33,233 bases of DNA from NCBI GenBank assembly GCA_964590575.1, contig CAZPWM010000031.1, forward strand, positions 1 to 33,233, in the 5' to 3' direction. The position numbers were made by a program, and so were the translations under genes. This stretch comes from an uncultured archaeon. GTDB taxonomy: Archaea > Asgardarchaeota > Thorarchaeia > Thorarchaeales > Thorarchaeaceae. Positions 597 to 30,940 of the stretch are shown here, piece by piece (position 1 is the stretch's first letter; each line of letters begins with the position of its first letter). Under the pieces are notes generated by a model that saw nothing but the letters and a program-made list of their open reading frames with translations, was not told the origin of the DNA and ran no database searches.

Positions 597-750
597 CATA
601 GTTATAACATGAGCTGGGCTCATTCTCAGCAATAATAGATGCGGGCTTCAAGACGTGGAGCACGTCTATACTCCTACTCAAGTCATTGGCGAAGGGGGGT
701 ATTCCACACTCCCTAGACGTATAGCTCCTCAAATAAAGAACATCAAACAT
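597..750 (-). pseudogene. Degenerate 5' fragment of a GT4 glycosyltransferase paralogous to 4071..5234
   Basis: With two frameshifts it reads MFDVLYLRSY/TSRECGIP/FANDLSRSIDVLHVLKPASIIAENEPSSCYNY, versus MLRVAYVSSYTPRECGIATFTEDLTKSIDDLNVLKPAAVIGINDSGSSYNY. Both genes have gatgtgattagt(c/t)tATG at the start. Confidence 0.85.
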
Positions 751-1042: not shown

Positions 1043-1696
1043 ATGGAAAAGAGGAAATATTTCACAGTAGCTATGATTGTGGCGCATCCTGATGATGAAA
1101 CGCTCTGGGCGGGCGGGACTGTGCTCATCCACTCGGACTGGCATTGGACAATTGTATCGATCTGTCGTGGAAGTGACACAGATCGGGCGCCAAAATTCAT
1201 CCGCGCTGTCCAGCAACTTGGGGGAGTTAGTGAAATCGGTGACCTTGATGATGGACCGGAGCAATTGCCTCTAACAGAAGCTGATGTACAACAAATGGTG
1301 CTCTCCTTATTGCCTGAAAAGCATTTTGACCTGATTATAACCCACAGTCCACATGGAGAATACACACGGCATCGACGCCACGAAGAAACCGGGACAGCAG
1401 TTGCTATGCTATGGGAGAAAGAACTGATTAAAGCAAAAGAGGTCTGGATGTTCGCTTATGAGGATGGGGGAAAGGGTGGTAAGCAGGACCGCCCTAGAGC
1501 AATCAAGGCGGCACACCGGAAATCATACTTGCCGGAGGACATATGGCAAAGGAAACGCACCATCGTTACGGACATATATGGCTTTGCTCCAGGGACATAT
1601 GAAGCTGATATCGTCATGAGGGAAGAAGCGTTCTGGTGTTTCCAATCTCCTGTTGAATTCCACGAGTGGTTAAAGACCAAGAGGAAGAAGCGATGA
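1043..1696 (+). CDS. PIG-L/LmbE family N-acetylhexosamine deacetylase
   Basis: N-terminal VAHPDDE metal-binding motif and second His motif THSPHGEYTRHRRH; 217 aa. Confidence 0.88.
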   Translation: MEKRKYFTVAMIVAHPDDETLWAGGTVLIHSDWHWTIVSICRGSDTDRAPKFIRAVQQLGGVSEIGDLDDGPEQLPLTEADVQQMVLSLLPEKHFDLIITHSPHGEYTRHRRHEETGTAVAMLWEKELIKAKEVWMFAYEDGGKGGKQDRPRAIKAAHRKSYLPEDIWQRKRTIVTDIYGFAPGTYEADIVMREEAFWCFQSPVEFHEWLKTKRKKR

Positions 1697-2835
1697 AAGT
1701 ACTTGTTCTATATGACTATCCACCTCCCCCTGGAGGGCTGGCAACCCAAGGCGACCTGCTCTACAGGGGACTCAAAGAATTAGGGATTGATACTCACGCG
1801 GTTCATTATACTTCTGCTCAGGAAAAGGAGTGGTACTACCGCTGGTTCAAACCGGATGTTGTCCTGGGAGTGGGTTACTGGGGAAATACACCTGATCTGG
1901 TTCTCCATCCTCAGCGGCATGGAATCCTGTCGGTACCCTGGCTAGTGGCTGATGGCTATATAGCAAATTATCAGGAGATCCTCAACAAGTTACCTCTCAT
2001 TCTGGTCACATCCCAATGGGTCAAAAATGTCTACATACGCGATGGTCTGCAGGGGAACAATATAGAGGTTTTACCAGTTGGAGTGGACACTGATTCCTTC
2101 ATGCCACGTGACAAGAGTGAACAGAAAGTGTCCTGTGTTCGTGAAGCTTTAGGTGTAAAACCTGAAGACCTTATGATCCTTACTATAGGCGGGGATGCCG
2201 CATCCAAAGGAGCACAGGAAGTGATGCAGGCGCTTGCAACTATTGATAGCAAAGCGCCTAAATGGAAATACGTGTGCAAGGTCTGGCCACAGCCTAGAAC
2301 ATTGCAGCAGAATCTTATGGATCTCCAGCTAGCAACCTCCCTTGGTATAAACAACAAGGTGATCTACACAACTAACATCGTTTCGCGGAATTTTATGCCG
2401 TACCTTCTGAACGCATGTGATATCTACGCAGCTCCTTCAAGGTTAGAGGGATTCGGAATGCCGCAGGTAGAAGCAGGAGCCTGTAGCAAGCCGGTTGTGT
2501 CCATAAAAGCTATGGCTATGCTTGATACACTGATCCATGGTGAAACCGCTTTCTTGGCTGATATCGCCACTGAGATCGTGATGAAAGAAACAACTGTCGG
2601 GGAGGAGTCTGGCTGGGAGCCAGGGCATAGGATCGTCTTTCAGAATCCAAGTACGGTCGATTATCGAGCCAGTGTCCATGATTTAGCTAACCACCTGCTG
2701 GCTCTTATGCAAGATGAGAAACTGCGACGACGGATGGGTGAAGCGGGGAGAAAACGAGTAGTAGAGAACTATGACTACCGAGTTGTCGCAAAGAAGTTCG
2801 TTCAGCTCATTTCGGAAAGACTGGGAGTTACGTGA
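1693..2835 (+). CDS. Glycosyltransferase family 4 (GT-B fold)
   Basis: Start MKVLVLYDYPPPPGG overlaps the upstream stop (ATGA). Motifs GVDTDSF, SKG, PSRLEGFGMPQVEAGAC (EX7E) and RRRMGEAGRKRV. Confidence 0.92.
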   Translation: MKVLVLYDYPPPPGGLATQGDLLYRGLKELGIDTHAVHYTSAQEKEWYYRWFKPDVVLGVGYWGNTPDLVLHPQRHGILSVPWLVADGYIANYQEILNKLPLILVTSQWVKNVYIRDGLQGNNIEVLPVGVDTDSFMPRDKSEQKVSCVREALGVKPEDLMILTIGGDAASKGAQEVMQALATIDSKAPKWKYVCKVWPQPRTLQQNLMDLQLATSLGINNKVIYTTNIVSRNFMPYLLNACDIYAAPSRLEGFGMPQVEAGACSKPVVSIKAMAMLDTLIHGETAFLADIATEIVMKETTVGEESGWEPGHRIVFQNPSTVDYRASVHDLANHLLALMQDEKLRRRMGEAGRKRVVENYDYRVVAKKFVQLISERLGVT

Positions 2836-2836
2836 G

Positions 2837-4009
2837 ATGAAAGAACAAGAATGGGCTAGTGTTAGAGAAGCCAAGAAAGCAGCCCTGGAGGTCTTACTGC
2901 ACAATGCCCGAGGTCCGTACCACGCACTGCCTAGAGCCGCCGGATGGGGGTACCCAGAGCCTTACACCCGTGATCTCTTAATCTCCGGGCTAGGCATATT
3001 AGCCTGCGAGAATCAAAAGTTGACTGTAGTTTTGCGACATGTACTACAGACGCTAGCCAGAAATCAAAACCATCTTGGACAAATTCCGGTACTTGTTCAT
3101 AACCCAAATGAACTTAATTCAAGCGATTCGACACCCCTCTTTCTTCTAGCCATCGGTCTATATAGAAAAGCAACCGGGGAAGCCAACTTCCTTGATGATG
3201 CGGTCCAGAAAGCGATGACATGGATGGAGTATCAGAGTCCAGCGGATGAAGTGATGGTAGCCCAATTGCCAACCAGTGATTGGCGAGATGAGCAGTGGAT
3301 ACTGGGGTATGGGCTCTTTGTGAATACCATAGTCTACAGTTATCTTCTCCTGCACAATAAAACCGAGAGAGCCTCAAGGATACGGAACGAGTTGAACAGA
3401 TATACGATTAGTGTCCAAAAAGGTTTGGCACACCGTCAGAAACCCTACTACGCTGCTTGGGTGTATAAAGTCCTGTATGACGAACATTTCGATCTCTTAG
3501 GCAACAGCTTGGCTATCCTCTCAGGTCTCGCATCGCCATCGAGAGCAAAAAGAATAGTCTCATGGATTGAGCGTGAATGTCAGACAATGCGTGAACAAGG
3601 TCAGCTGGCGATTGACCTCCCTCCTAATTTCTTCCCCTACATTCAGCCAGAGGATCGAGATTGGCACTCCAGATACGCTCAGTTCAATCTTCCTGGTGAA
3701 TATCACAACGGGGGAATCTGGCCTTTCGTTTGCGGTTTCTACATAGCAGCGATCGTGGCAACAGGCAAGTTTTCATTGGCAGAAAAAAAGCTGCTCGCTT
3801 TAACCAAACTGGTTCGCCCTTCACGTGAAGCTAATGTCGACTTTGGCTTCAATGAATGGTTTCGCGCTCAAGATGGCACACCAAGAGGGCAAGACTGGCA
3901 GAGTTGGTCAGCTGCGATGTATTTGTACGCCGCGGTTTCAGTCGAACAAAGAATAACCCCGTTTTTTGACGAAATTCGAAGTTTCTCACAAGAAGTATTT
4001 TCTGAATGA
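2837..4009 (+). CDS. (alpha/alpha)6 glycoside hydrolase, GH100 alkaline/neutral invertase-like or amylo-alpha-1,6-glucosidase-like
   Basis: Motifs YTRD, DSTPLF, FDLLGNSLAILSGLA, YHNGGIWPF, FNEW and QSWSAAMYL resemble GH100 YHNGGSWP and QTWS. The ATG at 2837 is 1 nt after the GT4 stop. Confidence 0.8.
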   Translation: MKEQEWASVREAKKAALEVLLHNARGPYHALPRAAGWGYPEPYTRDLLISGLGILACENQKLTVVLRHVLQTLARNQNHLGQIPVLVHNPNELNSSDSTPLFLLAIGLYRKATGEANFLDDAVQKAMTWMEYQSPADEVMVAQLPTSDWRDEQWILGYGLFVNTIVYSYLLLHNKTERASRIRNELNRYTISVQKGLAHRQKPYYAAWVYKVLYDEHFDLLGNSLAILSGLASPSRAKRIVSWIERECQTMREQGQLAIDLPPNFFPYIQPEDRDWHSRYAQFNLPGEYHNGGIWPFVCGFYIAAIVATGKFSLAEKKLLALTKLVRPSREANVDFGFNEWFRAQDGTPRGQDWQSWSAAMYLYAAVSVEQRITPFFDEIRSFSQEVFSE

Positions 4010-4041
4010 AATTTCGAGCTAGATATGAAGATAGACATGCG

Positions 4042-4069
4042 CAGGAGATTGATGGAATCCATCCTCCTG
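4042..4069. terminator. Hairpin between convergent genes
   Basis: caggag-att-gatgg-aat-ccatc-ctcctg forms a bulged stem-loop, with no strong U-tract. Confidence 0.35.
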
Positions 4070-4070
4070 T

Positions 4071-5234
4071 CTATTGAATCACTTCGTTGAATAAGGAAAC
4101 ATATTTCGAAGCTACTTTGGACCATGTCATGTCCTGACCGTACTCATATGCCAGCTTCTCAATGTGAGCTCTCTGTTCAGGGTTTTCTAAGAGGTGTCTG
4201 ATACCATCGGTAATGGAAGCAGGGCTTTTGAATTTGCACAGTACTCCACGGCCCTCAGCTAGAACCTCTTTCGCGTAGTAGAAGGGTGTAGAAACAATGG
4301 CTCTTCCAGCCCCTAAAGCATATGTCACAGTCCCACTTGAGAGTTGATCCACGTTAACATAGGGGCAGATGTACACATCCGTGGCTTGTAGGTATTGAAT
4401 AAGTTCGTCTTTACTCAAGAACCTATTATGGAACTTGACATTCTTCTCCAACTTTAGTTTCTTCACTAAATTCACAAGGCGTCTTCTGTATTTCTCGCCC
4501 ACACGCAGTCTAACTTGTGGATGAGTTGCTCCTATTATTAAATAGAGAATATCAGGCCACTCTTTGACGACATCTGGCAGAGCTTTAATTGCATTATGAA
4601 TTCCCTTGTCACGACTCAAGAGACCGAATGTAGACAAAACAATTCGTCCATCCAAACCTAAGGAGTCCTTTACTGACTCGCTTGGAACAAAAGGTATAGG
4701 CGGAGTTCCATGCGGAATGATTCTGATTTTATTGGCATCAACATTGTAACCCTTCTGAAGGATGTTGGCCGCCATCTTCGTCATGACAGTAATGGCAGAG
4801 CTGTATCGCCCTATCCCTTTCACTACTTTGTCGTGGGCTGCTTTACTTTCGGGTGTCTGGAATATCCTTGAATTGGGTGAAAGTGTCGTGTGCATGGTAG
4901 TGATGCTTGGTTTGTTCAATTTTTTAAGGAATGTCAAGAGATAATTTCCCCAATCTCCACCGAAAAGACCGAACTCATGTTGGACATTGACCAAATCAAA
5001 ATCTGAATCGTTGATTTGATCAGCTACTTGGAGATAGGTACGCTCGTCATTCGCATCAAGTTGCAATACTACTTCTTTTCCATAATTATATGATGAACCA
5101 GAGTCATTAATACCAATAACAGCTGCTGGTTTCAATACATTGAGGTCGTCGATACTCTTTGTCAAATCCTCAGTAAACGTAGCAATTCCGCACTCTCTGG
5201 GGGTATAGCTGCTGACATAAGCTACTCTAAGCAT
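4071..5234 (-). CDS. Glycosyltransferase family 4, mannosyltransferase-like subgroup
   Basis: Motifs SSYTPRECGIATF, QHEFGLFGG, IPHG, TFGLLSRDKG, GATHP and SSGTVTYALGAGRAIVSTP. Confidence 0.92.
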   Translation of the reverse strand: MLRVAYVSSYTPRECGIATFTEDLTKSIDDLNVLKPAAVIGINDSGSSYNYGKEVVLQLDANDERTYLQVADQINDSDFDLVNVQHEFGLFGGDWGNYLLTFLKKLNKPSITTMHTTLSPNSRIFQTPESKAAHDKVVKGIGRYSSAITVMTKMAANILQKGYNVDANKIRIIPHGTPPIPFVPSESVKDSLGLDGRIVLSTFGLLSRDKGIHNAIKALPDVVKEWPDILYLIIGATHPQVRLRVGEKYRRRLVNLVKKLKLEKNVKFHNRFLSKDELIQYLQATDVYICPYVNVDQLSSGTVTYALGAGRAIVSTPFYYAKEVLAEGRGVLCKFKSPASITDGIRHLLENPEQRAHIEKLAYEYGQDMTWSKVASKYVSLFNEVIQ

Positions 5235-5394: not shown

Positions 5395-6753
5395 TTAGAC
5401 CATTTCCTTTGCCCTCTCAATGAGCTTAACACCTTCATCGCTGAGACGATCAGCAGTTTCTTGTGTTTTTCCCTCGGCAAAACAACGATAGATAGGCTCA
5501 GTGCCAGACGGTCTGATAAGAAACCAGCCATCATCATGGATTATCTTCACACCATCTAGTGTTATACGATTCATGTCCTTACTTAGTTCAAGGAGTGCCT
5601 TTTGGAGTGGTTCCTTCTTTTCTTGAGGGACATGCACTTTCACCTTTGTATTGAAATATACAGGAAGTTCACTGACAAGCTGTGAGAGGGTTTTACCTTC
5701 TAGCGCAATCATTTCCACAACTTGGGTAGCAGTCATCGCACCATCACGAACAGGTTGATGAGCTGGATAAAAAACCCCCCCATTTTCCTCACCACCCAAT
5801 TCTGCACCAGTTTCCTCGAGTCTATGCGATACATCAACACTTCCAACCGTGGTCCAATCTATCTTGGCACCAGCTTTTCGGGCAACATCTTCAATAAGAC
5901 GACCGCTCGAAACAGGCGTGACTAGGGTTGATCCATGTTTCTTTGCCAGCACTCGTGAGGCTATCAATGCAAAGGATTGGTCACCCCATAGGACCCTGCC
6001 CGTTTCATCAACAAAGGTTGCTCGATCTGCATCACCATCATGTGCTATTCCCAAATCAGCTCCAGTGACTCTCACCATGAGCGCGAGGTCCTTAATATTC
6101 TCGGGGATTGGCTCAGGATTTCTTCCTGGAAATGAACCATCTAACTGAGAATTAAGTGAAACAACGGTACATCCAAGTTCTCTTAGGAGCCGGGGTGTCA
6201 CTAAACCACCTACACTATTGGCACAATCAACAATCACTTTCAGTTTTTTATTCCTTATTTTATCGACATCAAGGTGCGATTTGATTCCCTCTAAATACAC
6301 ATCAATAGCAGAGTCATAATCTGTGACTTGGCCAATTTTGTTCCAATCAGCAATATTGAATTTGTTCGAGTGGTAGAGTAGTTCAATCTGAGTTTCGGTT
6401 TCGCGGGATATCTCAATTCCATTGGAACCTATTACTTTGATTCCATTGAATTGAGGGGGGTTGTGTGATGCTGTGACCATGATTCCAGCGATACATCCTA
6501 ATCTGGGTATCATATACTGCAAAGTCGGAGTTGGTACAAGACCAAGATTGACAACCGAACAGCCTGTTGAGGTCAACCCAGAAGTCACCAACTGGGTGAA
6601 CATTTCACCTCCCATCCGCGAGTCCCGTGCTATTCCCACTAGACCGGGACCTAGCAAAGAGCCTACAGCACGACTCAGGTTGAGAACCAGTTCAACGGTA
6701 AAGTCCTCGTTTATTATACCGCGAACTCCGTTTGTACCAAACATTGTGGTCAA
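5395..6753 (-). CDS. glmM: Alpha-D-phosphohexomutase (archaeal phosphoglucosamine mutase / PMM-PGM)
   Basis: Motifs FGTNGVRG, catalytic TASHNP, metal loop DGDADR, GGEENGG and RPSGTEP. Sugar specificity cannot be fixed from motifs. Start is TTG 6753 or ATG 6744. Confidence 0.9.
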   Translation of the reverse strand: MTTMFGTNGVRGIINEDFTVELVLNLSRAVGSLLGPGLVGIARDSRMGGEMFTQLVTSGLTSTGCSVVNLGLVPTPTLQYMIPRLGCIAGIMVTASHNPPQFNGIKVIGSNGIEISRETETQIELLYHSNKFNIADWNKIGQVTDYDSAIDVYLEGIKSHLDVDKIRNKKLKVIVDCANSVGGLVTPRLLRELGCTVVSLNSQLDGSFPGRNPEPIPENIKDLALMVRVTGADLGIAHDGDADRATFVDETGRVLWGDQSFALIASRVLAKKHGSTLVTPVSSGRLIEDVARKAGAKIDWTTVGSVDVSHRLEETGAELGGEENGGVFYPAHQPVRDGAMTATQVVEMIALEGKTLSQLVSELPVYFNTKVKVHVPQEKKEPLQKALLELSKDMNRITLDGVKIIHDDGWFLIRPSGTEPIYRCFAEGKTQETADRLSDEGVKLIERAKEMV

Positions 6754-16581: not shown

Positions 16582-16630
16582 ACCACTTCCATGAGTTCCC
16601 ATCGATAGTGGAACTCATGTGGAGGGTGGT
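16582..16630 (+). promoter_or_regulatory. 5'-UTR stem-loop occluding the ribosome-binding site of the SBP gene
   Basis: catgagttcc (16590-99) pairs perfectly with ggaactcatg (16610-19). The outer accacttc can pair with ggagggtggt (16621-30) just before ATG 16634. Confidence 0.55.
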
Positions 16631-16633
16631 ATT

Positions 16634-18292
16634 ATGCAAAGAAACCAAGTAATAGCTGTAGTACTCATTATAGTGATAGTTGGTAGCGTAGCCGGGTACA
16701 TCTACTTCTTTGGACCTACGCCGGAGGCTATCATAGTAATGGGAACTACTGACTCGGTTGAAACCAGCCTTGATCCTGCCCAAGCCTATGATTATTTTGG
16801 ATGGGAGATGATTATGTCTCTTAGTTCAGGCTTGGTGGATATAGAACCGGGGTCGCAAGCAGGCCCAGATGACATACAACCTGCGTTAGCGGCTAGCTGG
16901 GTAATGAGTTCAAACGGATTGTACTGGGACTTCGTCCTTAGGCAGAATGTGCTATATGAGGACGGGAGAGAGTTCAATGCTACAGATGTCAAGTACACTT
17001 TCGATCGCAACTGTAATCTTACAGGCGATGGCTTGTTGGAGGAAGATGGTGCACAACTAGCTCTTGAGTATCATCTGATCATAAAGAACGTGACAGTCAC
17101 AGGTGAGTTCGCGGTCAGATTCAACTTGTATCAACCATTTGCTCCATTCTTACAGCTACTGTCCTGTCAAGCATCCTACATAGTTGATAGAGTGCATGCA
17201 CCAAAGGCGGAGCTTGTACAGTTTACTAGTGGTGACGCTCGTGCCAGTCATCCATGTGGGCTCGGTCCGTTCATTTTGGAGAACTGGACCAGAAGTGGAG
17301 GCGCAGATGTAGAGTTTCGTCTCAGGAAGAATCCCAACTACTGGAATGCTGCAGAAGGCTATCCAAAAACGGATATGATAGTCATCAAGAAATATGCTGA
17401 CCCCGCTGCGCTCGGGACAGCAATGGATTCTGGTGACATCGATATTGCCTACCGACAACTGACAGCTCAGCAGATTCACAGTTTCCAGAGTGACCCAGAC
17501 GTTCGCGTCTGGAAAGGAGTGGGAGCGCAAATACAGTACATGTGCTTCGACCAGAAGTTCTACCCATTCAACGAAACAGCAGTTAGGCAAGGAATAGCTG
17601 CCGCCTTCAATAGGACCAACGTCTGTAGTACAGTCTTTCTCGGCGACTTTTCACCTCTATACACCATCGTTCCAGAGGGGATGGCATATCACAGACCATC
17701 CTTCGAGGTCTACGGGGAAGCTAACTACACATTCACGCAGTCTCAGCTGGCACTCTTCGGTTACAACTCGACAAACAAGCTAGTCATAGAGTTCTACTAT
17801 GAGAACTCTGGACACTATCCGCAGAGTCCTCAGCAGGCAGCTGTGTACAAGACCGACCTTGAGGCGAGTGGAGTCATTACGGTGAACCTCCATGGTCTGG
17901 ATTGGGCCGCATATAAAACTCAGAGAGATGCAGAAACCATGCCTATGTACATGTATGGCTGGTATCCTGACTACATAGATCCAGACAACTATGCATTCTT
18001 ACCGTTTGCAACATGGCTTCACATGAACTATGACAAGGACACTCTACCGGGCGGTGCTGCGCAGTACGATCTATGGATCGACGGTCGAACAGCATCTACT
18101 TCTGCAGGAAGACAGACAGCATATTATGACTTGCAAGACCTGCAGGCAGAGGAGTGCTCGGTGATACCACTTTGGCAGAGTGACACCACAGCTGTTACAA
18201 AGCCAACAATACATGGAGTGGTGCTCGACATCACAGTAAGCTGGCGTCATTGGCTCATATATCTCGGAAGCTCAGCAACCACTGGTCCGTAA
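16634..18292 (+). CDS. dppA: ABC transporter substrate-binding protein, family 5 (DppA/OppA-like)
   Basis: N-terminal TM anchor; motifs SLDPAQAYD, PALAASW, FVLRQNVLYEDGREFNATDVKYTF, GLGPF and GWYPDYIDPDNY. Confidence 0.92.
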   Translation: MQRNQVIAVVLIIVIVGSVAGYIYFFGPTPEAIIVMGTTDSVETSLDPAQAYDYFGWEMIMSLSSGLVDIEPGSQAGPDDIQPALAASWVMSSNGLYWDFVLRQNVLYEDGREFNATDVKYTFDRNCNLTGDGLLEEDGAQLALEYHLIIKNVTVTGEFAVRFNLYQPFAPFLQLLSCQASYIVDRVHAPKAELVQFTSGDARASHPCGLGPFILENWTRSGGADVEFRLRKNPNYWNAAEGYPKTDMIVIKKYADPAALGTAMDSGDIDIAYRQLTAQQIHSFQSDPDVRVWKGVGAQIQYMCFDQKFYPFNETAVRQGIAAAFNRTNVCSTVFLGDFSPLYTIVPEGMAYHRPSFEVYGEANYTFTQSQLALFGYNSTNKLVIEFYYENSGHYPQSPQQAAVYKTDLEASGVITVNLHGLDWAAYKTQRDAETMPMYMYGWYPDYIDPDNYAFLPFATWLHMNYDKDTLPGGAAQYDLWIDGRTASTSAGRQTAYYDLQDLQAEECSVIPLWQSDTTAVTKPTIHGVVLDITVSWRHWLIYLGSSATTGP

Positions 18293-18304
18293 CATCTAAA
18301 GGTA

Positions 18305-18367
18305 GGTGCTACCAGTCCTGAAGAAACCTAATTCTGTAATTGGGTTTCAACAACGGATGGTAGCACC
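18305..18367 (+). other. Long intergenic stem-loop after the SBP gene
   Basis: Outer stem ggtgctacca/tggtagcacc and inner stem gaaacctaatt/aattgggtttc. Confidence 0.65.
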
Positions 18368-18401
18368 AATGATTTCTTTCATTGATTGTGGGTGATTTGG
18401 A

Positions 18402-19418
18402 ATGACTCTGAGGTCCTACGTAGCAAGCCGTATACTACTTACTATTCCCATGATTATGTTTCTTCTCACATTTGTGTTTGTTATAATTAGAATCCTCCCG
18501 GGAGACCCTGCTGCTCTCCACTTCGAGAAGAACGTCACTCCCGAAGTTCTCCAAGCTTTCAAGGAGTCACTAGGTCTCGACAAACCTCTCCTTGAACAAT
18601 ACTTTGACTATCTTATTGGCTTGTTCCATGGAGATCTTGGTCTCTCGATGCAAGATTATTCGCCCATCAGTGAGCACTTAGTTTCACGCTTTCCAGTGAC
18701 CCTAGAGTTGAGTCTATATTCTATACTCTTCGCTATCCTGCTAGGAGTAGCGCTCGGGGTAAAGGCATCGAAGAACTACGACTCAACCAGTGATCACTCC
18801 ATTAGGCTCTTCGGGATTATCACCTACGCAATTCCCGTCTTCTTTCTAGGAATGGTTCTTCAATTCATCTTTGGAATCTGGTTGAATGTGTTACCAACAG
18901 GAGGGTCATGGGATTCACATTTCAATTACCTAAAACCTCCGACTATTACCGGAATGGTCACAATCGACAGTCTTCTCACTGGTAACTTTTACGGATTTTT
19001 ATTGGGAATGAGATACCTCATTCTGCCTTCAATCACTCTGGGCACAGTACTATGCGGCATTTTCATCAGATTGACCCGCACTAACATGATGGAAACTCTG
19101 AGGACCGACTTTGTCGTTGCCGCTCGTGCAAGAGGACTCTCAGAAAATACAGTGACATACAGATACGCTTTGAAGAACGCGTTTCTTCCAATCTTGACAA
19201 TGATTGGACTACAGGTTGCTGCACTCCTTGCAGGAGCTATCCTCACTGAAACCACATTCAGCATTGATGGGATGGGCAGCTATCTCGTAGCGAGGATTAA
19301 CCGACGTGATTACACTGCTATTCAAGGTGCTGTTGTTCTGTTTGGCCTTTTGGTAAGTCTTGTGAGTCTTGTGGTAGACTTGATCTATGCGTACCTCGAC
19401 CCGAGAATAAGACTATAG
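18402..19418 (+). CDS. dppB: Peptide/nickel ABC permease
   Basis: Motifs PGDPA, LGLDKPLLEQY, GDLGLS, EAA loop DFVVAARARGL and YAYLDPRIR. Confidence 0.95.
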   Translation: MTLRSYVASRILLTIPMIMFLLTFVFVIIRILPGDPAALHFEKNVTPEVLQAFKESLGLDKPLLEQYFDYLIGLFHGDLGLSMQDYSPISEHLVSRFPVTLELSLYSILFAILLGVALGVKASKNYDSTSDHSIRLFGIITYAIPVFFLGMVLQFIFGIWLNVLPTGGSWDSHFNYLKPPTITGMVTIDSLLTGNFYGFLLGMRYLILPSITLGTVLCGIFIRLTRTNMMETLRTDFVVAARARGLSENTVTYRYALKNAFLPILTMIGLQVAALLAGAILTETTFSIDGMGSYLVARINRRDYTAIQGAVVLFGLLVSLVSLVVDLIYAYLDPRIRL

Positions 19419-19429
19419 GAGGACAAAAG

Positions 19430-20698
19430 ATGAAACAGGATGCTATTGTAAAGGGAATCTTTCTGCGCATAGGTCCAATGAAGGAGTCTCTTCGACACCA
19501 GTCAACGAAGTGGTGGGTAGGTTTTGGAGCGGTCATCATAAGCGCCGTGGTGCTTCTAATCGGTTTGATTTCCTTAGCCGCAGTGTCCAATAGTGGGATT
19601 GGACTTCAGTCTGTTGCGATTTCACTCGCCTTTGCTGCAGTCTTGCTGTTCGTCACCACATTAGCGAAACGATTAGATTCGGGGAGATGGACTGAACGTA
19701 GACCGGTACTTTGGTTTGTACCCTTGGGCGCGATAGCCATGATGGATGTGGTAGTCTCACTTGGTCTTCTTCTCGCACAAGAAGAGTGGTTACGTTTCAC
19801 TGTGGAGATAACATTCGCAGGAGTAATACTTGGGATTATTCTACTCCTCTACACCGAGGGTTACCCACTTCTGCGGGATAGAGGCTCAGCGGGGTTCATA
19901 ACAATCGCAGGACTTACACTGGTGTTTCTGATACTCTATATGACCGCCATATCCGATTGGATTGTTCCATATGCTCCGTTTGATATCAACGTTGGTGGTA
20001 TACTCGCTGCTCCATCGCCAAGGTTTCCACTTGGAACTACTGACCTTGGTCAAGACCTCCTGAGTCGTGTCATCGCAGGAGGCGCGATCATGCTACAGGT
20101 GGCGGCAATCTCTGTGGCAGTCTGTTTCGTTATTGGGATTCCTGTGGGGCTATTAGCTTCATACAAAGGTGGAGTCCTGGACAGGATTGTTTCGCTGGTC
20201 ATGGATAGCCTCTTTGCATTCCCGGGTCTGGTATTGGCGATAGCTCTTGCTGCAATGCTAGGGGCAGGTGTTGTCAACATGGCCTTGGCCATTGCAGTCG
20301 TGTACATTCCATCATACTTCAGGGTAGTGAGAAGCCAGGTCCTTACCGTGAGAGAGCTACCCTATGTCGAGGCTGCAATTGTATTGGGCGCAACCGACCG
20401 TGAAGTGCTCCTCCGCTATATCCTACCCAATGTGCTACCCTCAGCAGTGGTGGTTATGTCAATCAACTTCGCTGATGCCATATTGACAGCTGCAGGTTTG
20501 ACATTTGTTGGGCTTGGATTGGGTATAGATATCACTGATTGGGGTCGGGACCTCACTACTGGTGCACAATACCTCAATGTCGTCCATGCATGGTGGGTCA
20601 TTTCCTTTCCTGGGCTCATGATTATCATTCTAGCTCTTGGATTTACATTGACGGGCGAGGGACTCAGTGAAATCCTCACGCCAAAACTAAGGGAGTAA
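19430..20698 (+). CDS. dppC: Peptide/nickel ABC permease with an extra N-terminal membrane domain
   Basis: Motifs PLGTTDLGQDLLSR, YVEAAIVLGA, YILPN and WWVISFPG; 422 aa. Confidence 0.93.
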   Translation: MKQDAIVKGIFLRIGPMKESLRHQSTKWWVGFGAVIISAVVLLIGLISLAAVSNSGIGLQSVAISLAFAAVLLFVTTLAKRLDSGRWTERRPVLWFVPLGAIAMMDVVVSLGLLLAQEEWLRFTVEITFAGVILGIILLLYTEGYPLLRDRGSAGFITIAGLTLVFLILYMTAISDWIVPYAPFDINVGGILAAPSPRFPLGTTDLGQDLLSRVIAGGAIMLQVAAISVAVCFVIGIPVGLLASYKGGVLDRIVSLVMDSLFAFPGLVLAIALAAMLGAGVVNMALAIAVVYIPSYFRVVRSQVLTVRELPYVEAAIVLGATDREVLLRYILPNVLPSAVVVMSINFADAILTAAGLTFVGLGLGIDITDWGRDLTTGAQYLNVVHAWWVISFPGLMIIILALGFTLTGEGLSEILTPKLRE

Positions 20699-20703
20699 AC
20701 ACA

Positions 20704-21711
20704 TTGACTGACCTTTTAAAAATCGAGGACTTGATTGTTGAATACAAGACCCGTCGTGGTGCCGCTAGAGGAGTAGACAGAATATCTCTTAAGCTTCAGA
20801 AAAACAAGACTCTCGGCTTAGCAGGAGAGAGCGGTTGCGGAAAGTCCACTCTTGGACGAGCTATAATCAATCTTGTTCCTCACCCTGGGAAAATTCTTTC
20901 CGGAAACATAATCCTGAATCTGGACGAGGACGTTCCATACGAGGGTGGCATAATCAGTACGGGTGAGGTGAACATACCTTATCTCGGTGAGAAGGAGATG
21001 AGGGCTCTTCGAGGAAAAGAGATTGCATACATCTTCCAAGATCCTATGACCTCCCTGAATCCGATGGTGAGCATAGGTAGTCACTATGTTGAAACTATCC
21101 AAGCACATGAACCTGATGTTGAAAAGGAGGAGGCGCTTGAGAGAGGATCTAAAATGCTCGAGAGTCTTGGTATTCTGGCTGAACGCATCAAAGACTATCC
21201 GCACCAGTTCAGTGGAGGAATGCGTCAGCGGGTAATGGTGGGTCTAGGTCTGGTCCTAAAACCCACGTTGCTAATCGCGGATGAACCTACAACGTCCCTT
21301 GATGTTGTAGTAGAGGCGCAGATACTTCGAGAAATGGCCGAGCTGAAAGAGAAGTTCAACCTCACAATGATTCTGATAACACACAACCTTGGAGTGTTAG
21401 CTCAAACTGCTGACAGCATAGCGGTGGTTTATTGTGGGAGGGTTGCTGAGTTGGCATCCACTGAGGCACTCTTCGAAGCCCCAAAGCATCCCTATACACA
21501 AGCACTTCTTCAGTCCGTCCCAGATGTGACCAAACCGGATAAGAAACTTACCTGGATACCTGGTGCCCCGCCGGATTTGACGCATCTCTTTCCGGGTTGC
21601 GTGTACAATCCAAGATGTCCTCATGCAATGGAAATTTGCAGGAGCGTGCAACCCCCACTCATCGAAGTAGACGACAGCAGTTTAGTAGCATGTCATCTCT
21701 ATGGAGGCTAG
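20704..21711 (+). CDS. dppD: Peptide ABC ATP-binding subunit
   Basis: Motifs GESGCGKS, FQDPMTSLNP, YPHQFSGGMRQR and IADEPTT; C-terminal Cys cluster GCVYNPRC...C...VACH. Confidence 0.95.
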   Translation: MTDLLKIEDLIVEYKTRRGAARGVDRISLKLQKNKTLGLAGESGCGKSTLGRAIINLVPHPGKILSGNIILNLDEDVPYEGGIISTGEVNIPYLGEKEMRALRGKEIAYIFQDPMTSLNPMVSIGSHYVETIQAHEPDVEKEEALERGSKMLESLGILAERIKDYPHQFSGGMRQRVMVGLGLVLKPTLLIADEPTTSLDVVVEAQILREMAELKEKFNLTMILITHNLGVLAQTADSIAVVYCGRVAELASTEALFEAPKHPYTQALLQSVPDVTKPDKKLTWIPGAPPDLTHLFPGCVYNPRCPHAMEICRSVQPPLIEVDDSSLVACHLYGG

Positions 21712-21714
21712 GAA

Positions 21715-22692
21715 TTGGGTCTCATAGAATTCAAACGAGTCAAGAAGTACTTCCCAATTCAGAGAGGATTTCTCGAATCCATCTTCACGAAGGAAAAAAC
21801 CTTCGTAAGGGCGGTGGATGATGTTTCCTTCAGTATTGCCAAAGGAGAGGTTCTCGGTTTGGTGGGAGAAAGCGGGTCTGGAAAGACAACCACAGGTCGT
21901 CTCTGTGTTCGTCTGATTGCGCCAACCGACGGGCAGATTCTCTATGAGGGAAAGGACATAGCTAAGCTCCACGGTAAGGACCTGAGATTAATCAGGAGAA
22001 GGCTCCAATTTACCTTCCAAGATCCAACATCCTCACTTAATCCGCGAATGTCGATAGGAAACGCCATTGCGGATGCAATGCGACTACAGGGCATCGGAAC
22101 GTCCGATGAAAGGAAGGCAAGAACGGAAGAGATCCTAGAGCGCGTGGGGCTCTCACCAGTTTCTACCTTCTACAATAGGCTGCCGCATCAGCTATCCGGT
22201 GGACAGAAACAGCGGGTAGTTTTCGCAAGAGCCACGATACTGAATCCTGAGTTTGTTGTCACTGATGAACCCGTGGCAATGGTAGATGTGTCAATCAAGG
22301 CGCAGATTCTAGAGTTGATGATGGACCTCAAGAAAGAATTTGATCTTACCTACCTCTTCATCACTCATGATCTCGCTACTGCGCGGCATGTCTGCGACAG
22401 AATAGCTGTGATGTATCTGGGCAGGATAGTGGAGGTGGCTGACAGAAATCGTATCTACGATGACCCCTTACATCCATACTCTGTAGGTCTTATGAAAGCG
22501 ATACCTGTTCCTAATCCGAAGGTGAAATCAGAAGCTGTTCTACAGGGCGAGATTCCAAGCCCAATAGATCCTCCCACTGGGTGCAGATTTCATCCGAGAT
22601 GTCCAAAAGCCTTTGCGAGATGTCCAGTGGAGGAACCAGAGCTCACGGACGTTGGGGAAGATCGACAGGTTGCATGTCACTTGTACTCATAA
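21715..22692 (+). CDS. dppF: Peptide ABC ATP-binding subunit
   Basis: Motifs GESGSGKT, PHQLSGGQKQR and GEIPSPIDPPTGCRFHPRC...VACH. Confidence 0.95.
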   Translation: MGLIEFKRVKKYFPIQRGFLESIFTKEKTFVRAVDDVSFSIAKGEVLGLVGESGSGKTTTGRLCVRLIAPTDGQILYEGKDIAKLHGKDLRLIRRRLQFTFQDPTSSLNPRMSIGNAIADAMRLQGIGTSDERKARTEEILERVGLSPVSTFYNRLPHQLSGGQKQRVVFARATILNPEFVVTDEPVAMVDVSIKAQILELMMDLKKEFDLTYLFITHDLATARHVCDRIAVMYLGRIVEVADRNRIYDDPLHPYSVGLMKAIPVPNPKVKSEAVLQGEIPSPIDPPTGCRFHPRCPKAFARCPVEEPELTDVGEDRQVACHLYS

Positions 22693-26167: not shown

Positions 26168-28039
26168 ATGCTGAAAGGATACATGGGAAGAATTCTGAGA
26201 GTCAACCTCACTGATGGAACAATCACAGAGGAATTCCCAGACGACGAGATTCTTAGAAAGTATTTGGGCGGTGCTGGGCTCGCAACATATTATCTGATCA
26301 ATGAAACGGAGAAAGGAATTGATCCTCTAGGAACAGAGAACAAACTCATCTTCATGACTGGACCCCTCACTGGAACGCAATCGCCGAGTGCTGGGAGATA
26401 TAGTGTTGTGGCCAAGTCGCCCCTGACCAATCTATGGGGCCAAGCAAACTCTGCAGGATTCTGGGCGAAGGACTTCAAGCGGTCAGGTTTTGACGGCATC
26501 ATCTTTGAGGGAATCTCTCCAAAACCAGTCTATCTTTTGACTGAAGATGGAAAAGCTGAGCTAAAAGATGCTGCTGAGATATGGGGAAAGACAACTTCAG
26601 AAACAACCAGGATTTTGAAAGAGAAACATGGTCCGAAGCATAATGTCTCATGTATTGGCCCTGCGGGCGAGAATCTTGTAAAATACGCTGCAATCATGAA
26701 TGACTGTGATGAGAAGTATTTTGGTCGTGCTGCAGGAAGGTGTGGGTTAGGAACCGTTATGGGTTCAAAGAACCTGAAGGCGGTAGTTGCTTATGGTAAA
26801 GAGCCAATCCCCATCGCAAATCCTGAAGAGTATAGATCAGAAGCCAAGAAGAGGTTTGATTGGGTCAACCAGAGCATGCTGAAGATGACCCTAGAGGTCT
26901 ATGGAACTGCTACTATGGTAGACCTGTGTCAGGTTGTTGGAGGATTGCCAACGCGGAACTTTCAGACTGGCGTGTTTGAAGGTGCTGAGAATATCAATGG
27001 TACCGCCTTGAATGATACAATCCTTGCATCGCGCAAGCCTTGCTTTGCATGCCCGATTGCTTGCGGTCGGATCGTGGAAATCAAGGAGGGGCAGTTCAAG
27101 AGCCGAGGAGAGGGCCCGGAGTATGAAACAATTGGAGCCTTTGGTAGCATGTGTGGTGTGGATGATCTCGAAGCCATCTCCATGGCACACTTCCTATGCA
27201 ATGAGTACGGTCTCGATGTGATATCGGCAGGAGTCTCAGTAGCCTTTGTCATGGAGTGTTTTGAGAAGGGAATCATAACAAAAGAGGACACAGGTGGAAT
27301 CGAATTCAAGTTCGGGGACAAAAATATCATTGCGGATATTGTGCCTAAGATTGCCCTCCGCGAGGGATTCGGAGATGTTATGGCTGAGGGTACGATGAGA
27401 ATGTCCAAGAAATTCGGAAAAGGTTCAGACCACTTTGCCATGCATGTTAAAGGATTGGAACTTCCTGCATATGACAGTCGAGCTGCAAAAATCACCGGGT
27501 TGGCTTATGCCACCGCAAATCGAGGTGGTGATCATATCACAGCATGGATCGAGGGGCCATCTTTTCTCTCAATGCCTTACATGATAGTGGATGACGCTGA
27601 TGTGGGAGACCCACAGAAGGAGATACCTGAGAAATCAGTGATACTGAAGGACTTTGAAGACGCCTTTCAGATATTTGATGCTGTTGGGGCGTGTAAGTTC
27701 ATGGGCATCGTCATGACCGCTGAGGACTGGGCAGTGTTGTTATCAAACCTCATGGGGATTGAATTCTCAGCAACAGACTTCCGGAAGACAGGTGAGCGGA
27801 TTTACAATCTTGAAAAGGTCTACAATATCCGTGAAGGAGCCACACGAAGGGATGACACTCTCCCTCCAAGGTTTCTCAAAGACCCACTTCCGGAGGGTCC
27901 AGCTAAGGGCTTGGTGGTCAATCTTGAACCCATGTTGGAGAGCTACTATGAGTTTCGAGGCTGGGACAAGGAAGGTAAGCCAACAAAGGAGAAACTGACT
28001 GAACTCGGACTTGAATTGGTCATTGACCAGATTTATTGA
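26168..28039 (+). CDS. aor: Tungsten-dependent aldehyde:ferredoxin oxidoreductase family protein
   Basis: Motifs GYMGRILRVNLT, KSPLT, IGPAGEN, GRCGLGTVMGSKNLKA, 4Fe-4S C-x2-C-x3-C (CFACPIAC), GPEYET, GLDVIS, RGGDH and YYEFRGWD. Confidence 0.95.
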   Translation: MLKGYMGRILRVNLTDGTITEEFPDDEILRKYLGGAGLATYYLINETEKGIDPLGTENKLIFMTGPLTGTQSPSAGRYSVVAKSPLTNLWGQANSAGFWAKDFKRSGFDGIIFEGISPKPVYLLTEDGKAELKDAAEIWGKTTSETTRILKEKHGPKHNVSCIGPAGENLVKYAAIMNDCDEKYFGRAAGRCGLGTVMGSKNLKAVVAYGKEPIPIANPEEYRSEAKKRFDWVNQSMLKMTLEVYGTATMVDLCQVVGGLPTRNFQTGVFEGAENINGTALNDTILASRKPCFACPIACGRIVEIKEGQFKSRGEGPEYETIGAFGSMCGVDDLEAISMAHFLCNEYGLDVISAGVSVAFVMECFEKGIITKEDTGGIEFKFGDKNIIADIVPKIALREGFGDVMAEGTMRMSKKFGKGSDHFAMHVKGLELPAYDSRAAKITGLAYATANRGGDHITAWIEGPSFLSMPYMIVDDADVGDPQKEIPEKSVILKDFEDAFQIFDAVGACKFMGIVMTAEDWAVLLSNLMGIEFSATDFRKTGERIYNLEKVYNIREGATRRDDTLPPRFLKDPLPEGPAKGLVVNLEPMLESYYEFRGWDKEGKPTKEKLTELGLELVIDQIY

Positions 28040-28045
28040 GCTCAA

Positions 28046-29755
28046 GTGTCTCTATCAGAGATGATTGCAGTGACAATATCATACCAAGACAAACCCTGGC
28101 TTAAGGCATATTCCCTGGGACCCTTCAAGCTGAAGCAGACCATGGAACCATATCCAGAGGTTAATGTCTACTCATTCTTGGAAGAGTCTGCGAAGAACTT
28201 TCCAGAAAATGTTGCCTGCGTGTACTTGGACGAGGAAATCACCTATACGGAATTGAAGGATAAGGTGGATCGACTTGCATCTGCGTTTATTGAACTCGGT
28301 GTGAAGAAAGGGGACACAGTCGCCACAGTTCTCCCATCCTGTCCAGAGTTCATTATTGCAGACTACGCTTGTATGAAGATAGGTGCAATTCACGTGCCCC
28401 TGAGTATCCTCCATAAAGCAGACGACCTTCTTCATGAGATTAAAGAGAGCAAAGCGGAGGTTGTCGTCTGTTCCTATCGACGAGTACCTCGGGTGAATGA
28501 AGTCAAACCGGACACAGATGTGAAGACTGTAATCTACACGCCCACGAGGATATTCCCTGACTACGAGCCTCCTAAAATGCAAGGAATCTCTGAGCCGGGA
28601 TACTATTTATTGAATGACCTGATTGAGAAGAACGAACCTCACTGCGAACAAGTTGAGATTAATCCAAAAGAAGACCTTGCATTGCTCCCTTTTACAGGTG
28701 GGACAACCGGAGTTCCTAAGGGCACGATGCTGTCCCACTATAATCTCACATCCAATGTTGTTCAGACAATTCACTGGATGCTGGACCCTCTAAAGGTAGG
28801 AGTTGTAGGGAAGGGTGCAACCACGATCTGTGTGCCAATATTCCACATGTATGGACACTGGGCAATTCATGCTAGCATCTCATGGGGTCTGAAGATGTAT
28901 TTAATGGACCCGAGAGACTTGGTGAAGATTGTGGAGATAATAAATGAAAAACGACCAGCAATAGTTTTTGCAGTACCTGCTCATTACACTATGTTCTGCC
29001 AAATGCCCCTGAATAAAGGACAGATTTTCTATTACTCTGGCGCTGCATCTTTACCCCCAGACCTCGCTGCAGAGTTCGAAAAGATATCAGGCGTGCCTAT
29101 GGGTGAAGGATATGGGGCTACAGAGACCTCAGCATGCGCTACAGCTAATATCTCAGCCTTCTCAAAGGTGACAGGATTCATGAAACAGGTGAAACGTGGA
29201 ATTGGTGTTCCATTACCTGATACTGAGGTTCGAGTTGTCAATCCTGAAACAGGGGAAGAACCACCAGTAGGAGAGCCTGGCGAGTTATGGGTCAGAGGGC
29301 CCCAGATTATGGTCGGTTATTGGCCATCCCTCGGTTCCGGTTTGGAAAAGGACGGGTGGTTGAAAATGGGGGACATGGTGGTCATGGATGATGAGGGATA
29401 CTTCAAAGTTGTCGATCGGATCAAAGACATGATTAATGTCGGGGGTAACAAGGTGTATAGTCGTGTCATCGATGACATCCTCCATGAGCATCCAGCAGTT
29501 GATGTGGCGGGAGTAATTGGAGTGCCTGACCCAGAAAGAGCAGGAAGCGAACGGGTCAAGGCATTCATTCAGCTGAAACCAGAGTTTAGAGGGAAGGTCA
29601 CAGAACAGGAGATTATTGAATTTCTTAGGAACAAGGTCAAGCCATATGCTTTACCTAAATTCGTTGAATTCCGCGACGAACTTCCACTCACACTCATCTT
29701 GAAACTGCACAAGAAATTGCTACGGGAAGAAGAACTGGCAAAGTTGTCAAGATGA
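28046..29755 (+). CDS. AMP-dependent acyl-CoA synthetase (long-chain fatty acid-CoA ligase-like)
   Basis: Motifs FTGGTTGVPKG, GEGYGATE, GELWVRGPQIM.GYW and GD...DDEGYF..VDRIKDMINVGG. Confidence 0.92.
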   Translation: MSLSEMIAVTISYQDKPWLKAYSLGPFKLKQTMEPYPEVNVYSFLEESAKNFPENVACVYLDEEITYTELKDKVDRLASAFIELGVKKGDTVATVLPSCPEFIIADYACMKIGAIHVPLSILHKADDLLHEIKESKAEVVVCSYRRVPRVNEVKPDTDVKTVIYTPTRIFPDYEPPKMQGISEPGYYLLNDLIEKNEPHCEQVEINPKEDLALLPFTGGTTGVPKGTMLSHYNLTSNVVQTIHWMLDPLKVGVVGKGATTICVPIFHMYGHWAIHASISWGLKMYLMDPRDLVKIVEIINEKRPAIVFAVPAHYTMFCQMPLNKGQIFYYSGAASLPPDLAAEFEKISGVPMGEGYGATETSACATANISAFSKVTGFMKQVKRGIGVPLPDTEVRVVNPETGEEPPVGEPGELWVRGPQIMVGYWPSLGSGLEKDGWLKMGDMVVMDDEGYFKVVDRIKDMINVGGNKVYSRVIDDILHEHPAVDVAGVIGVPDPERAGSERVKAFIQLKPEFRGKVTEQEIIEFLRNKVKPYALPKFVEFRDELPLTLILKLHKKLLREEELAKLSR

Positions 29756-29897
29756 TTATTTTGGCTTTCCAAGGCAAAATGGTACTCAATTCTGCAACTA
29801 TGAAGGAATCCTAGTGCAGTTCTCGATAGGTTGATTACATTGTTTACTCAGTCGCAATGACCGGGGTAGACAGTATCAGCCCAGAAGGTAATTATCA

Positions 29898-30923: not shown

Positions 30924-30940
30924 AACGGAGGATGTATTGA

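Follow-up and report, generated by a model that had tools for sequence, protein, structure and literature searches.

The stretch of DNA analyzed here (the window; 33,233 nucleotides) is the start of contig C31 (CAZPWM010000031.1) in the genome of an uncultured archaeon of the Thorarchaeaceae (GCA_964590575.1; 3.40 Mb on 194 contigs, 91% complete). It carries three consecutive forward-strand genes, encoding a PIG-L/LmbE-family de-N-acetylase (positions 1043 to 1696; 217 amino acids), a GT4-type retaining GT-B glycosyltransferase, hereafter GT4a (1693 to 2835; 380 amino acids), and a GH100-like (alpha/alpha)6 glycosidase-like protein, hereafter the hydrolase (2837 to 4009; 390 amino acids). The TGA stop of the first gene (1694 to 1696) and the ATG of the second (1693 to 1695) form an ATGA overlap, and a single base (2836) separates the TGA stop of the second (2833 to 2835) from the ATG of the third at 2837, so that the trio is indeed the translationally coupled cassette that a preliminary description of this DNA had proposed. 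Longer starts are possible in the list of open reading frames (GTG at 1666 for GT4a, ATG at 2771 for the hydrolase); the shorter ones were preferred because most of 120 listed GT4a relatives are exactly 380 amino acids long and because homologue alignments begin at those residues. Logan contigs from public sequencing runs span positions 9 to 1526, 590 to 1845 and 1821 to 2874 with zero differences, although this agreement is not independent support since the runs may include the source sample. The best-matching DNA runs were salt-marsh and aquatic metagenomes, with the source sample possibly among them. The junction between the hydrolase gene and the gene convergent with it (GT4b, described below) was crossed by two X3 contigs that skip 18 intergenic bases (4027 to 4046), and none of the aligned contigs bridges it as in the window. 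Two further elements were read from the sequence only: TTTAATTT at 1014 to 1021 on the forward strand, centered about 25 nucleotides before the ATG at 1043, which resembles an archaeal TATA box and whose position would suit a leaderless or short-leader trio transcript, and an inverted repeat (CAGGAG...CTCCTG, about 4043 to 4070) between the two convergent genes.

The families named in the preliminary description were correct for all three proteins, each of which exceeded its Pfam cut-off (PF02585, PF00534 and PF12899). The first protein matched PF02585 (38.3 bits, cut-off 28.2) over profile positions 2 to 126 of 129; we take this family to be CAZy family CE14. Its AHPDDE motif (residues 14 to 19), H101, GEY (105 to 107), H110, R112 and H113 were at least 97% conserved among 44 homologues, and the metal-binding and catalytic motifs, which we take to be AHPDD(E) and a downstream pair of histidines, are intact as judged from this alignment. 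To our knowledge, every characterized member of the family has a glucosamine derivative as substrate and attacks its 2-N-acyl group. The sole PDB sequence match was the Pyrococcus deacetylase PH0499, at an insignificant E value (0.37). The protein scored 23.3 bits against BshB2 (TIGR04000; cut-off 195.25) and gave no match to TIGR04001 or TIGR03445 at E ≤ 0.01.

GT4a matched PF00534 at 76.5 bits (cut-off 26.4). Across 32 sequences its mean column identity was 80%, and the E252-x7-E260 pair was invariant. An AlphaFold model (predicted local distance difference test [pLDDT] of 87) shows a GT-B fold into which a conserved beta hairpin is inserted at approximately residues 291 to 326. Its best structural matches were GlgM (top), HepE, MshA and BshA (template-modeling [TM] scores of 0.69 to 0.76), followed by ManT, SPS and TreT; to judge from the model, these neighbors are mostly GT4 enzymes with small soluble acceptors, and the matches do not identify the donor. 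All NCBIfam scores were below cut-off (MshA TIGR03449: 60.4 bits, cut-off 462.5; BshA TIGR03999: 45.6, cut-off 273.7; glgA_Coryne: 79.9, cut-off 302.4; SPS: 19.5, cut-off 576; N-acetylglucosaminyl-phosphatidylglycerol synthase NF053787: 37.9, cut-off 480). Relatives are numerous, with at least 7,224 clusters at 90% identity reaching E ≤ 1e-50 among 8,000 candidates scored, and their names are all automatic or generic (including “starch synthase”, “alpha-maltose-1-phosphate synthase” and “mannosylfructose-phosphate synthase”).

The hydrolase matched PF12899 (Glyco_hydro_100; 46.7 bits, cut-off 23.6) at profile positions 248 to 429 of 435 only, the C-terminal half, and PF06202 (GDE_C; 35.9 bits, cut-off 21) at positions 269 to 364 of 367 only. 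Matches to PF22422 (MGH1-like; 21.2 bits) and to glucosylglycerate hydrolase (NF047898; 18.9 bits) were below their cut-offs. Its model (pLDDT of 79, predicted TM score of 0.87) is an (alpha/alpha)6 barrel whose best Foldseek matches were GH100 invertases (TM 0.65 to 0.70, 17 to 19% identity), with other six-hairpin enzymes next; a Thermus mannosylglycerate hydrolase was among the fold matches, and the Thermococcus enzyme 7vma, which serves for comparison with amylo-alpha-1,6-glucosidase, ranked 39th. PDB invertases aligned to residues 204 to 370 only, and the hydrolase is about 70 residues shorter than these enzymes. By published residue roles, Glu414 of InvA and Glu415 of InvB are the catalytic glutamate and Asp188 of InvA is the catalytic aspartate (PMC6995568). 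Glu415 of InvB aligned with E340 of the hydrolase, an invariant residue in an invariant GFNEW; D148 and D151 are likewise invariant and are candidates for the Asp188 role, in a loop modeled at a pLDDT below 50. Mean column identity was 70% across 31 sequences (L030 and L048 were left out of the alignment owing to a stop codon in the matched stretch). Because identity to the invertases is only 17 to 19%, the counterpart of InvB Arg430 is missing and the Asp188 position cannot be aligned, the hydrolase is, on sequence and model comparison, a distinct family related to GH100 and not a plain invertase. A PF12899 search of the archaeon's own genome found no true GH100 enzyme.

To establish how widely the arrangement occurs, 58 loci were gathered with peptide patterns of the hydrolase. 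Their hosts were Thorarchaeota, Bathyarchaeia, Thermoplasmata, Planctomycetota, Bacteroidota, an Akkermansia metagenome-assembled genome (MAG), Chloroflexota, Myxococcota, Nitrospirota and others, and the closest loci came from Thorarchaeota MAGs (83 to 92% protein identity). Conservation of the trio across genomes, which the preliminary description had named as a check, was evident: among the 42 loci with at least 1,850 nucleotides upstream of the hydrolase, both the PIG-L and the GT4a gene were present in 39 and colinear with short gaps in 36, the exceptions being L052 (neither gene) and L054 and L058 (no GT4a). With all three genes in 39 of 42 loci, the arrangement is not due to chance. GT4a was about 70 to 75% identical between archaea and bacteria (about 70% between an Asgard archaeon and Planctomycetota or Bacteroidota). 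Its distribution among Asgard archaea is patchy: it was detected in 6 of 400 genomes (E ≤ 1e-60), all of one family, and in 3 of 27 genomes of the same genus besides that of the window. When 44 GT4a sequences were placed in a quick maximum-likelihood tree (unrooted; midpoint used for drawing only), the Thorarchaeota and two Bathyarchaeia sequences formed a clade (Shimodaira-Hasegawa-like approximate likelihood ratio test [SH-aLRT] of 96) which joined one Dehalococcoidales and one Myxococcota sequence (SH-aLRT of 99) in a group that sits among bacterial clades, while a third Bathyarchaeota sequence was placed elsewhere. This topology suggests that transfer of the genes between domains is likely, an aspect that the preliminary description had overlooked. 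Acquisition from bacteria is probably the simplest reading, its direction being only suggested because the tree is unrooted. One Thorarchaeota MAG (G328) carried two whole copies of the gene set, on contigs C89 and C96 (loci L019 and L004), with GT4a 92% identical to that of the window in both; either the set is duplicated or the bin mixes two strains. A search of one open-access library found no paper on a deacetylase-GT4-hydrolase cassette.

The trio itself was recognized in the preliminary description, but it makes up half of a larger module, comprising also a GH130 phosphorylase, a second GT4 glycosyltransferase (GT4b), a 349-residue (alpha/alpha)6-like protein (up349) and a CBS-pair protein, that was overlooked there. 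The first 187 codons of up349 lie at positions 2 to 562 of the reverse strand, where the gene is cut by the contig end; this part is 74% identical to residues 1 to 186 of its counterpart at L001:1633-2679. Residues 240 to 349 were found at the end of contig C100 (C100:11365-11694), adjoining the GH130 and CBS-pair genes. It follows that contigs C31 and C100 are contiguous and that the set is complete in this genome (CBS, GH130, up349, PIG-L, GT4a, hydrolase, GT4b and GlmM). Pfam matches of up349 were faint (C5-epim_C, GH127 and GH88), and an ESM Atlas search returned only automatic “glycosyltransferase” names, with C5-epim_C in 12 to 19% of cluster members. On the other side of the trio, and convergent with it, lie GT4b (4071 to 5234, reverse strand; 387 amino acids; PF00534 76.1 bits, PF13439 37.7 bits) and a 452-residue phosphohexosamine mutase (5395 to 6753, reverse strand). 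This is the phosphohexomutase that had been noted nearby, and it is of the archaeal GlmM type (TIGR03990 562.1 bits, cut-off 439); GlmM adjoins GT4b in four of the five other Thorarchaeota-like loci (L001, L002, L018 and L019; the fifth is cut off). Those loci run GlmM, GT4b, up349, GH130 (reverse strand), CBS (reverse strand), PIG-L, GT4a, hydrolase, an order from which the window differs. A relic resembling the first 51 residues of GT4b lies just upstream of up349 (598 to 750, reverse strand; tblastn 57% identity, E = 1.3e-11) and, since the trio is also inverted relative to the L001-type order, points to an old rearrangement or to a lost second copy of GT4b.

Beyond the Thorarchaeota, GH130 was present in 26 of the 58 loci, and GT4b and up349 in 18 each, fused into a protein of about 750 amino acids in Bacteroidota and some others; six loci (five Flavobacteriaceae, one Rikenellaceae) had a third GT4. 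Of five genomes tested in which the trio lacked an adjacent GH130, all five had a GH130 gene at another site, compared with 4 of 14 control genomes. The archaeon's own GH130 scored 233 and 231 bits against solved 1,2-beta-oligomannan and beta-1,2-mannobiose phosphorylases, and 297.7 bits against NF052550 (below its 450 cut-off); by these sequence comparisons it is of the beta-1,2-mannoside-phosphorylase type, not the Man-beta-1,4-GlcNAc type (GlcNAc, N-acetylglucosamine). Directly 3′ of the hydrolase in L049 and L054 is a NagB-like gene (e.g., L054:6495-7376) which scored 281.8 bits against NF002557 and 196.7 bits against TIGR00502 (below its 236.9 cut-off), matching best the front part of NF002557 (653 positions, “glucosamine-6-phosphate deaminase-like”). 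We take NF002557 to cover fusions of NagB with LmbE, in which case deaminase and PIG-L domains would be connected in other proteins too. No transmembrane segment or signal peptide was found in any module protein, with the neighboring TauE as a positive control, and PADLOC gave no defense-system match for seven module proteins.

The pairing of a GT4 with a PIG-L enzyme also recalls the first steps of mycothiol and bacillithiol synthesis, and the preliminary description had called for a search for bshC and mshC elsewhere in the genome. A BshC-like gene does exist, in a Bsh locus of its own on contig C23 (L061:6465-12015), together with BshA, a BshB1-like protein, a 153-residue protein of unknown function and a second archaeal GlmM. 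There BshA exceeded its cut-off (377.8 bits, cut-off 273.7), BshC-like (77.8, cut-off 265.8) and the divergent BshB1-like protein (81.6, cut-off 182.5) fell below theirs, and GlmM scored 521 bits; an earlier study already reports BshA and BshC homologues in Asgard archaea (PMC7278568). GT4a is 18% identical to the BshA of C23 and the PIG-L protein 28% identical to its BshB-like protein, values low enough for the trio to be a different system. A search for MshC gave only a match below cut-off (270.8 bits, cut-off 485), and all 14 control genomes matched as well, one of them over the cut-off. No ligase-like gene recurred beside the trio in the 58 neighborhoods, in agreement with the earlier remark that a cysteine ligase is lacking at the locus. 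By analogy, a GlmM paralogue beside each of the two loci lends mild support to a donor of the UDP-GlcNAc type in the module.

We consider it an evenly balanced proposition that these genes make and break down a glucosamine-containing glycoside in a cytoplasmic cycle to which a mannoside sub-module is coupled; the same weight, jointly with this cycle, goes to the three genes being one cytoplasmic operon of an uncharacterized, horizontally spread sugar module. Going beyond the family assignments, we infer a donor, an acceptor, an order of steps, a hydrolase substrate and a physiological role. GT4a would transfer an N-acetylhexosamine in alpha linkage (probably GlcNAc, with UDP-GlcNAc as donor) to a soluble acceptor, probably of carbohydrate type; the PIG-L enzyme would then strip the N-acetyl group to leave a glucosaminide; and the GH100-like enzyme, whose nearest relatives cleave alpha-glucosidic bonds, would hydrolyze the alpha-glucosaminide and so provide turnover. 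The trio would cooperate with a second sub-module (GH130, GT4b and up349) handling mannose units, the whole set making and recycling an internal glycoside or short glycan of glucosamine and mannose that may serve as a stress solute or reserve.

Several lines of evidence favor such a cycle. The genes are tightly coupled and their order is conserved (colinear in 36 of 42 loci), and the key motifs are intact in all three proteins (AHPDDE with H110 and H113 in PIG-L, E-x7-E in GT4a and E340 in the hydrolase). An amino sugar is suggested by the GlmM gene beside the module in the window and in four Thorarchaeota-like loci, by the NagB-like neighbors in L049 and L054, and by the GlmM paralogue near the archaeon's own true BshA, a UDP-GlcNAc enzyme; together with the PIG-L family itself, these lend support to the amino-sugar involvement put forward in the preliminary description, while its “glucosaminyl glycoside” stays at the level of a proposal. 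A soluble acceptor is indicated by the small soluble acceptors of structural matches such as GlgM, MshA, BshA, SPS and TreT and by the lack of transmembrane segments and signal peptides in the module proteins, and the 70 to 75% identity of GT4a across domains speaks for a soluble substrate of universal occurrence rather than a lipid specific to one domain. Coupling to mannosides is suggested by GH130, given its presence in 26 of 58 loci and in all five genomes with a GH130-less trio and its scores against beta-1,2-mannoside phosphorylases. In overall logic, glucosylglycerate and mannosylglycerate hydrolase systems (GH63-like) resemble the trio, in that a transferase produces a glycoside in the cytoplasm and a six-hairpin hydrolase degrades it; the trio differs from those solute pairs in scores below cut-off, in having no GpgS/MpgS-type (GT81/GT55/GT78) synthase or phosphatase, and in its extra deacetylation step.

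Other observations weigh against this cycle. Neither GT4a nor the hydrolase has a close PDB relative (best identities of 12 to 21% and 17 to 19%, respectively), and therefore the donor sugar and the hydrolase substrate cannot be read from the sequence; more generally, the comparisons yielded no characterized close homologue, and the steps of the cycle are inferred ones. In the hydrolase, the N-terminal half, including the position of InvA Asp188, gave no HMMER alignment, the invariant PTSDWRDEQW loop was modeled at a pLDDT below 50, and InvB Arg430 falls in an insertion of InvB relative to the 31-sequence profile. GT4 also contains phosphorylases, as stated in PMC4264767, which means that GT4a could work without a nucleotide sugar. 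The NagB-like neighbor occurs in only 2 of 58 loci, and co-occurrence with GH130 indicates linkage only weakly, since many Bacteroidota and Planctomycetota have a GH130 in any case (4 of 14 controls). Collection by peptide patterns means that only fairly close relatives were sampled, and no RNA run was listed among the public runs matching the stretch.

The alternative that survives best is catabolic, and we regard it as possible, if doubtful. Here the PIG-L enzyme would deacetylate GlcNAc or a GlcNAc-containing oligosaccharide, the (alpha/alpha)6 enzyme would cleave the glucosaminide, GH130 would phosphorolyze mannosides, and GlmM and NagB would feed glycolysis, with GT4a acting as a phosphorylase or in a side reaction. 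The diacetylchitobiose deacetylase of Thermococcales is a PIG-L-type model for this, and PH0499, however weak its match, was the one PDB hit of the PIG-L protein. In the archaeal chitin pathway, Dac (PH0499/TK1764) deacetylates before an exo-glucosaminidase makes a glucosaminide-specific cleavage, the same sequence that we propose for the cycle, although the trio differs from that pathway in the insignificant PH0499 match, in its hydrolase family, in a translationally coupled GT4 and in having no chitinase or transporter. The presence of GH130 and the mutase in the module, the NagB-like genes 3′ of the hydrolase in L049 and L054, and the phosphorylases within GT4 (PMC4264767) also fit salvage. 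The same source describes a beta-1,2-mannoside phosphorylase cluster in Thermoanaerobacter sp. X-514 with the same GH130 type, a GT4 nearby and cytoplasmic enzymes; unlike the module, this cluster includes genes for an ABC transporter, a GH5 and a mannose-1-phosphate guanylyltransferase but no PIG-L or GH100-like gene (PMC4264767). Against a catabolic role, no transporter, binding protein or secreted glycosidase recurred in the 58 neighborhoods and all module proteins are cytoplasmic; two or three GT4s with intact E-x7-E would be unusual in a purely degradative locus, and the GH130 is of the beta-1,2 type rather than the Man-beta-1,4-GlcNAc type.

Two further alternatives are both improbable. 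The first is a glucosamine-containing membrane lipid head group, either a glycosylphosphatidylinositol-like glucosaminyl-inositol lipid or glucosaminyl-phosphatidylglycerol, an option raised in the preliminary description. It draws on PIG-A/PIG-L logic and on the weak NF053787 match, and GT4 lipid glycosyltransferases often have no transmembrane segments. The NF053787 score nevertheless lies far below its 480 cut-off, Pfam domain calls found no PIG-A-specific domain, the module has no recurrent membrane protein, GT4a most resembles soluble-acceptor enzymes in structure, and it is about 70% identical between archaea and bacteria even though their membrane lipids differ; with soluble proteins and this cross-domain identity, the option has become unlikely. 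The second is an ordinary sucrose or alpha-glucan set, in which GT4a resembles sucrose-phosphate or starch synthases, the hydrolase is a plain neutral invertase or debranching enzyme and PIG-L is a passenger. Pfam does place the hydrolase in GH100 and GDE_C, automatic names of GT4a relatives include “starch synthase”, and GlgM is the best structural match of GT4a. GH100 alkaline/neutral invertases (Anabaena InvA/InvB, Arabidopsis CINV; PDB 5goo, 5z73 and 6ttj) share with the hydrolase the (alpha/alpha)6 barrel and the catalytic glutamate corresponding to E340. PIG-L is no passenger, however, since its gene overlaps that of GT4a and occurs in 39 of the 42 informative loci; the hydrolase differs from the invertases in its low identity, match confined to the C-terminal half, shorter length and missing Arg430 position, and is always linked to PIG-L and GT4 rather than to sucrose genes; and SPS and glgA_Coryne scores are far below their cut-offs.

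Least probable of all are the first steps of a bacillithiol- or mycothiol-like thiol with the cysteine ligase encoded elsewhere: the trio does share with MshA/MshB and BshA/BshB the coupling of a retaining GT4 transferase with a PIG-L/LmbE deacetylase, the top structural matches of GT4a include MshA and BshA, weak MshA, BshA and BshB2 matches exist and the genome has a BshC-like gene, but all these scores are far below cut-off (so that the trio, as had been held, is neither MshA/MshB nor BshA/BshB itself), the BshC-like gene belongs to the separate C23 locus with a true BshA, a BshB1-like gene and its own GlmM paralogue, identities to the C23 proteins are low, no ligase-like gene recurs beside the trio, the MshC match is below cut-off and shared by the controls, and an always attached glycosidase-like third gene, which would destroy the intermediate, makes little sense in a cofactor pathway, all of which turns the earlier thiol-precursor option into an unlikely one. 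What probability remains goes to explanations outside the make-and-break cycle and these four alternatives.

The gene set is thus very widespread and very conserved, in archaea and many bacteria alike, and still uncharacterized; its probable role is to synthesize and recycle an internal sugar compound that contains glucosamine, and it is not a thiol-cofactor pathway. The conservation of GT4a and the fixed gene order point to an important, specific metabolite, and because cultured carriers exist (Salegentibacter salarius DSM 23401, Neptunitalea chrysea NBRC 110019 and an Akkermansia lineage) the question is directly testable. For Asgard biology the point is a smaller one, the module being a patchy and probably bacterial import (6 of 400 genomes) and not a eukaryote-like trait. 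More speculatively, and with no great confidence, the trio with its GH130, GT4b and (alpha/alpha)6 partners may be among the most widespread uncharacterized cytoplasmic sugar cycles of prokaryotes, building and consuming a glucosamine-bearing beta-1,2-mannoside (a prokaryotic counterpart of the mannogen reserve of Leishmania) or a new zwitterionic stress solute, and hardly altered by its passage between bacteria and archaea, the Asgard archaea among them.

In both Chloroflexota loci (L034 and L037) a 240-residue S-adenosylmethionine-dependent methyltransferase directly follows the hydrolase (e.g., L037:7275-7994), a hint at possible methylation of the product in this phylum. Upstream of the trio in seven Planctomycetota loci (L006, L017, L020, L041, L053, L055 and L056), CorA, a TrkA-C protein, a DUF5698/DUF2179 membrane protein and MarC recur, as does an arginine decarboxylase/agmatinase/deoxyhypusine-synthase-like set, forming an ion- and polyamine-related neighborhood. 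Farther along the window, an Opp/Dpp-type peptide ABC transporter (16619 to 22692) precedes a forward-strand run (26168 to 32242) of an aldehyde:ferredoxin oxidoreductase, an AMP-forming acyl-CoA ligase, a 2,4-diaminopentanoate-dehydrogenase-like gene and a class-III aminotransferase, which together look like an amino-acid fermentation set unrelated to the trio.

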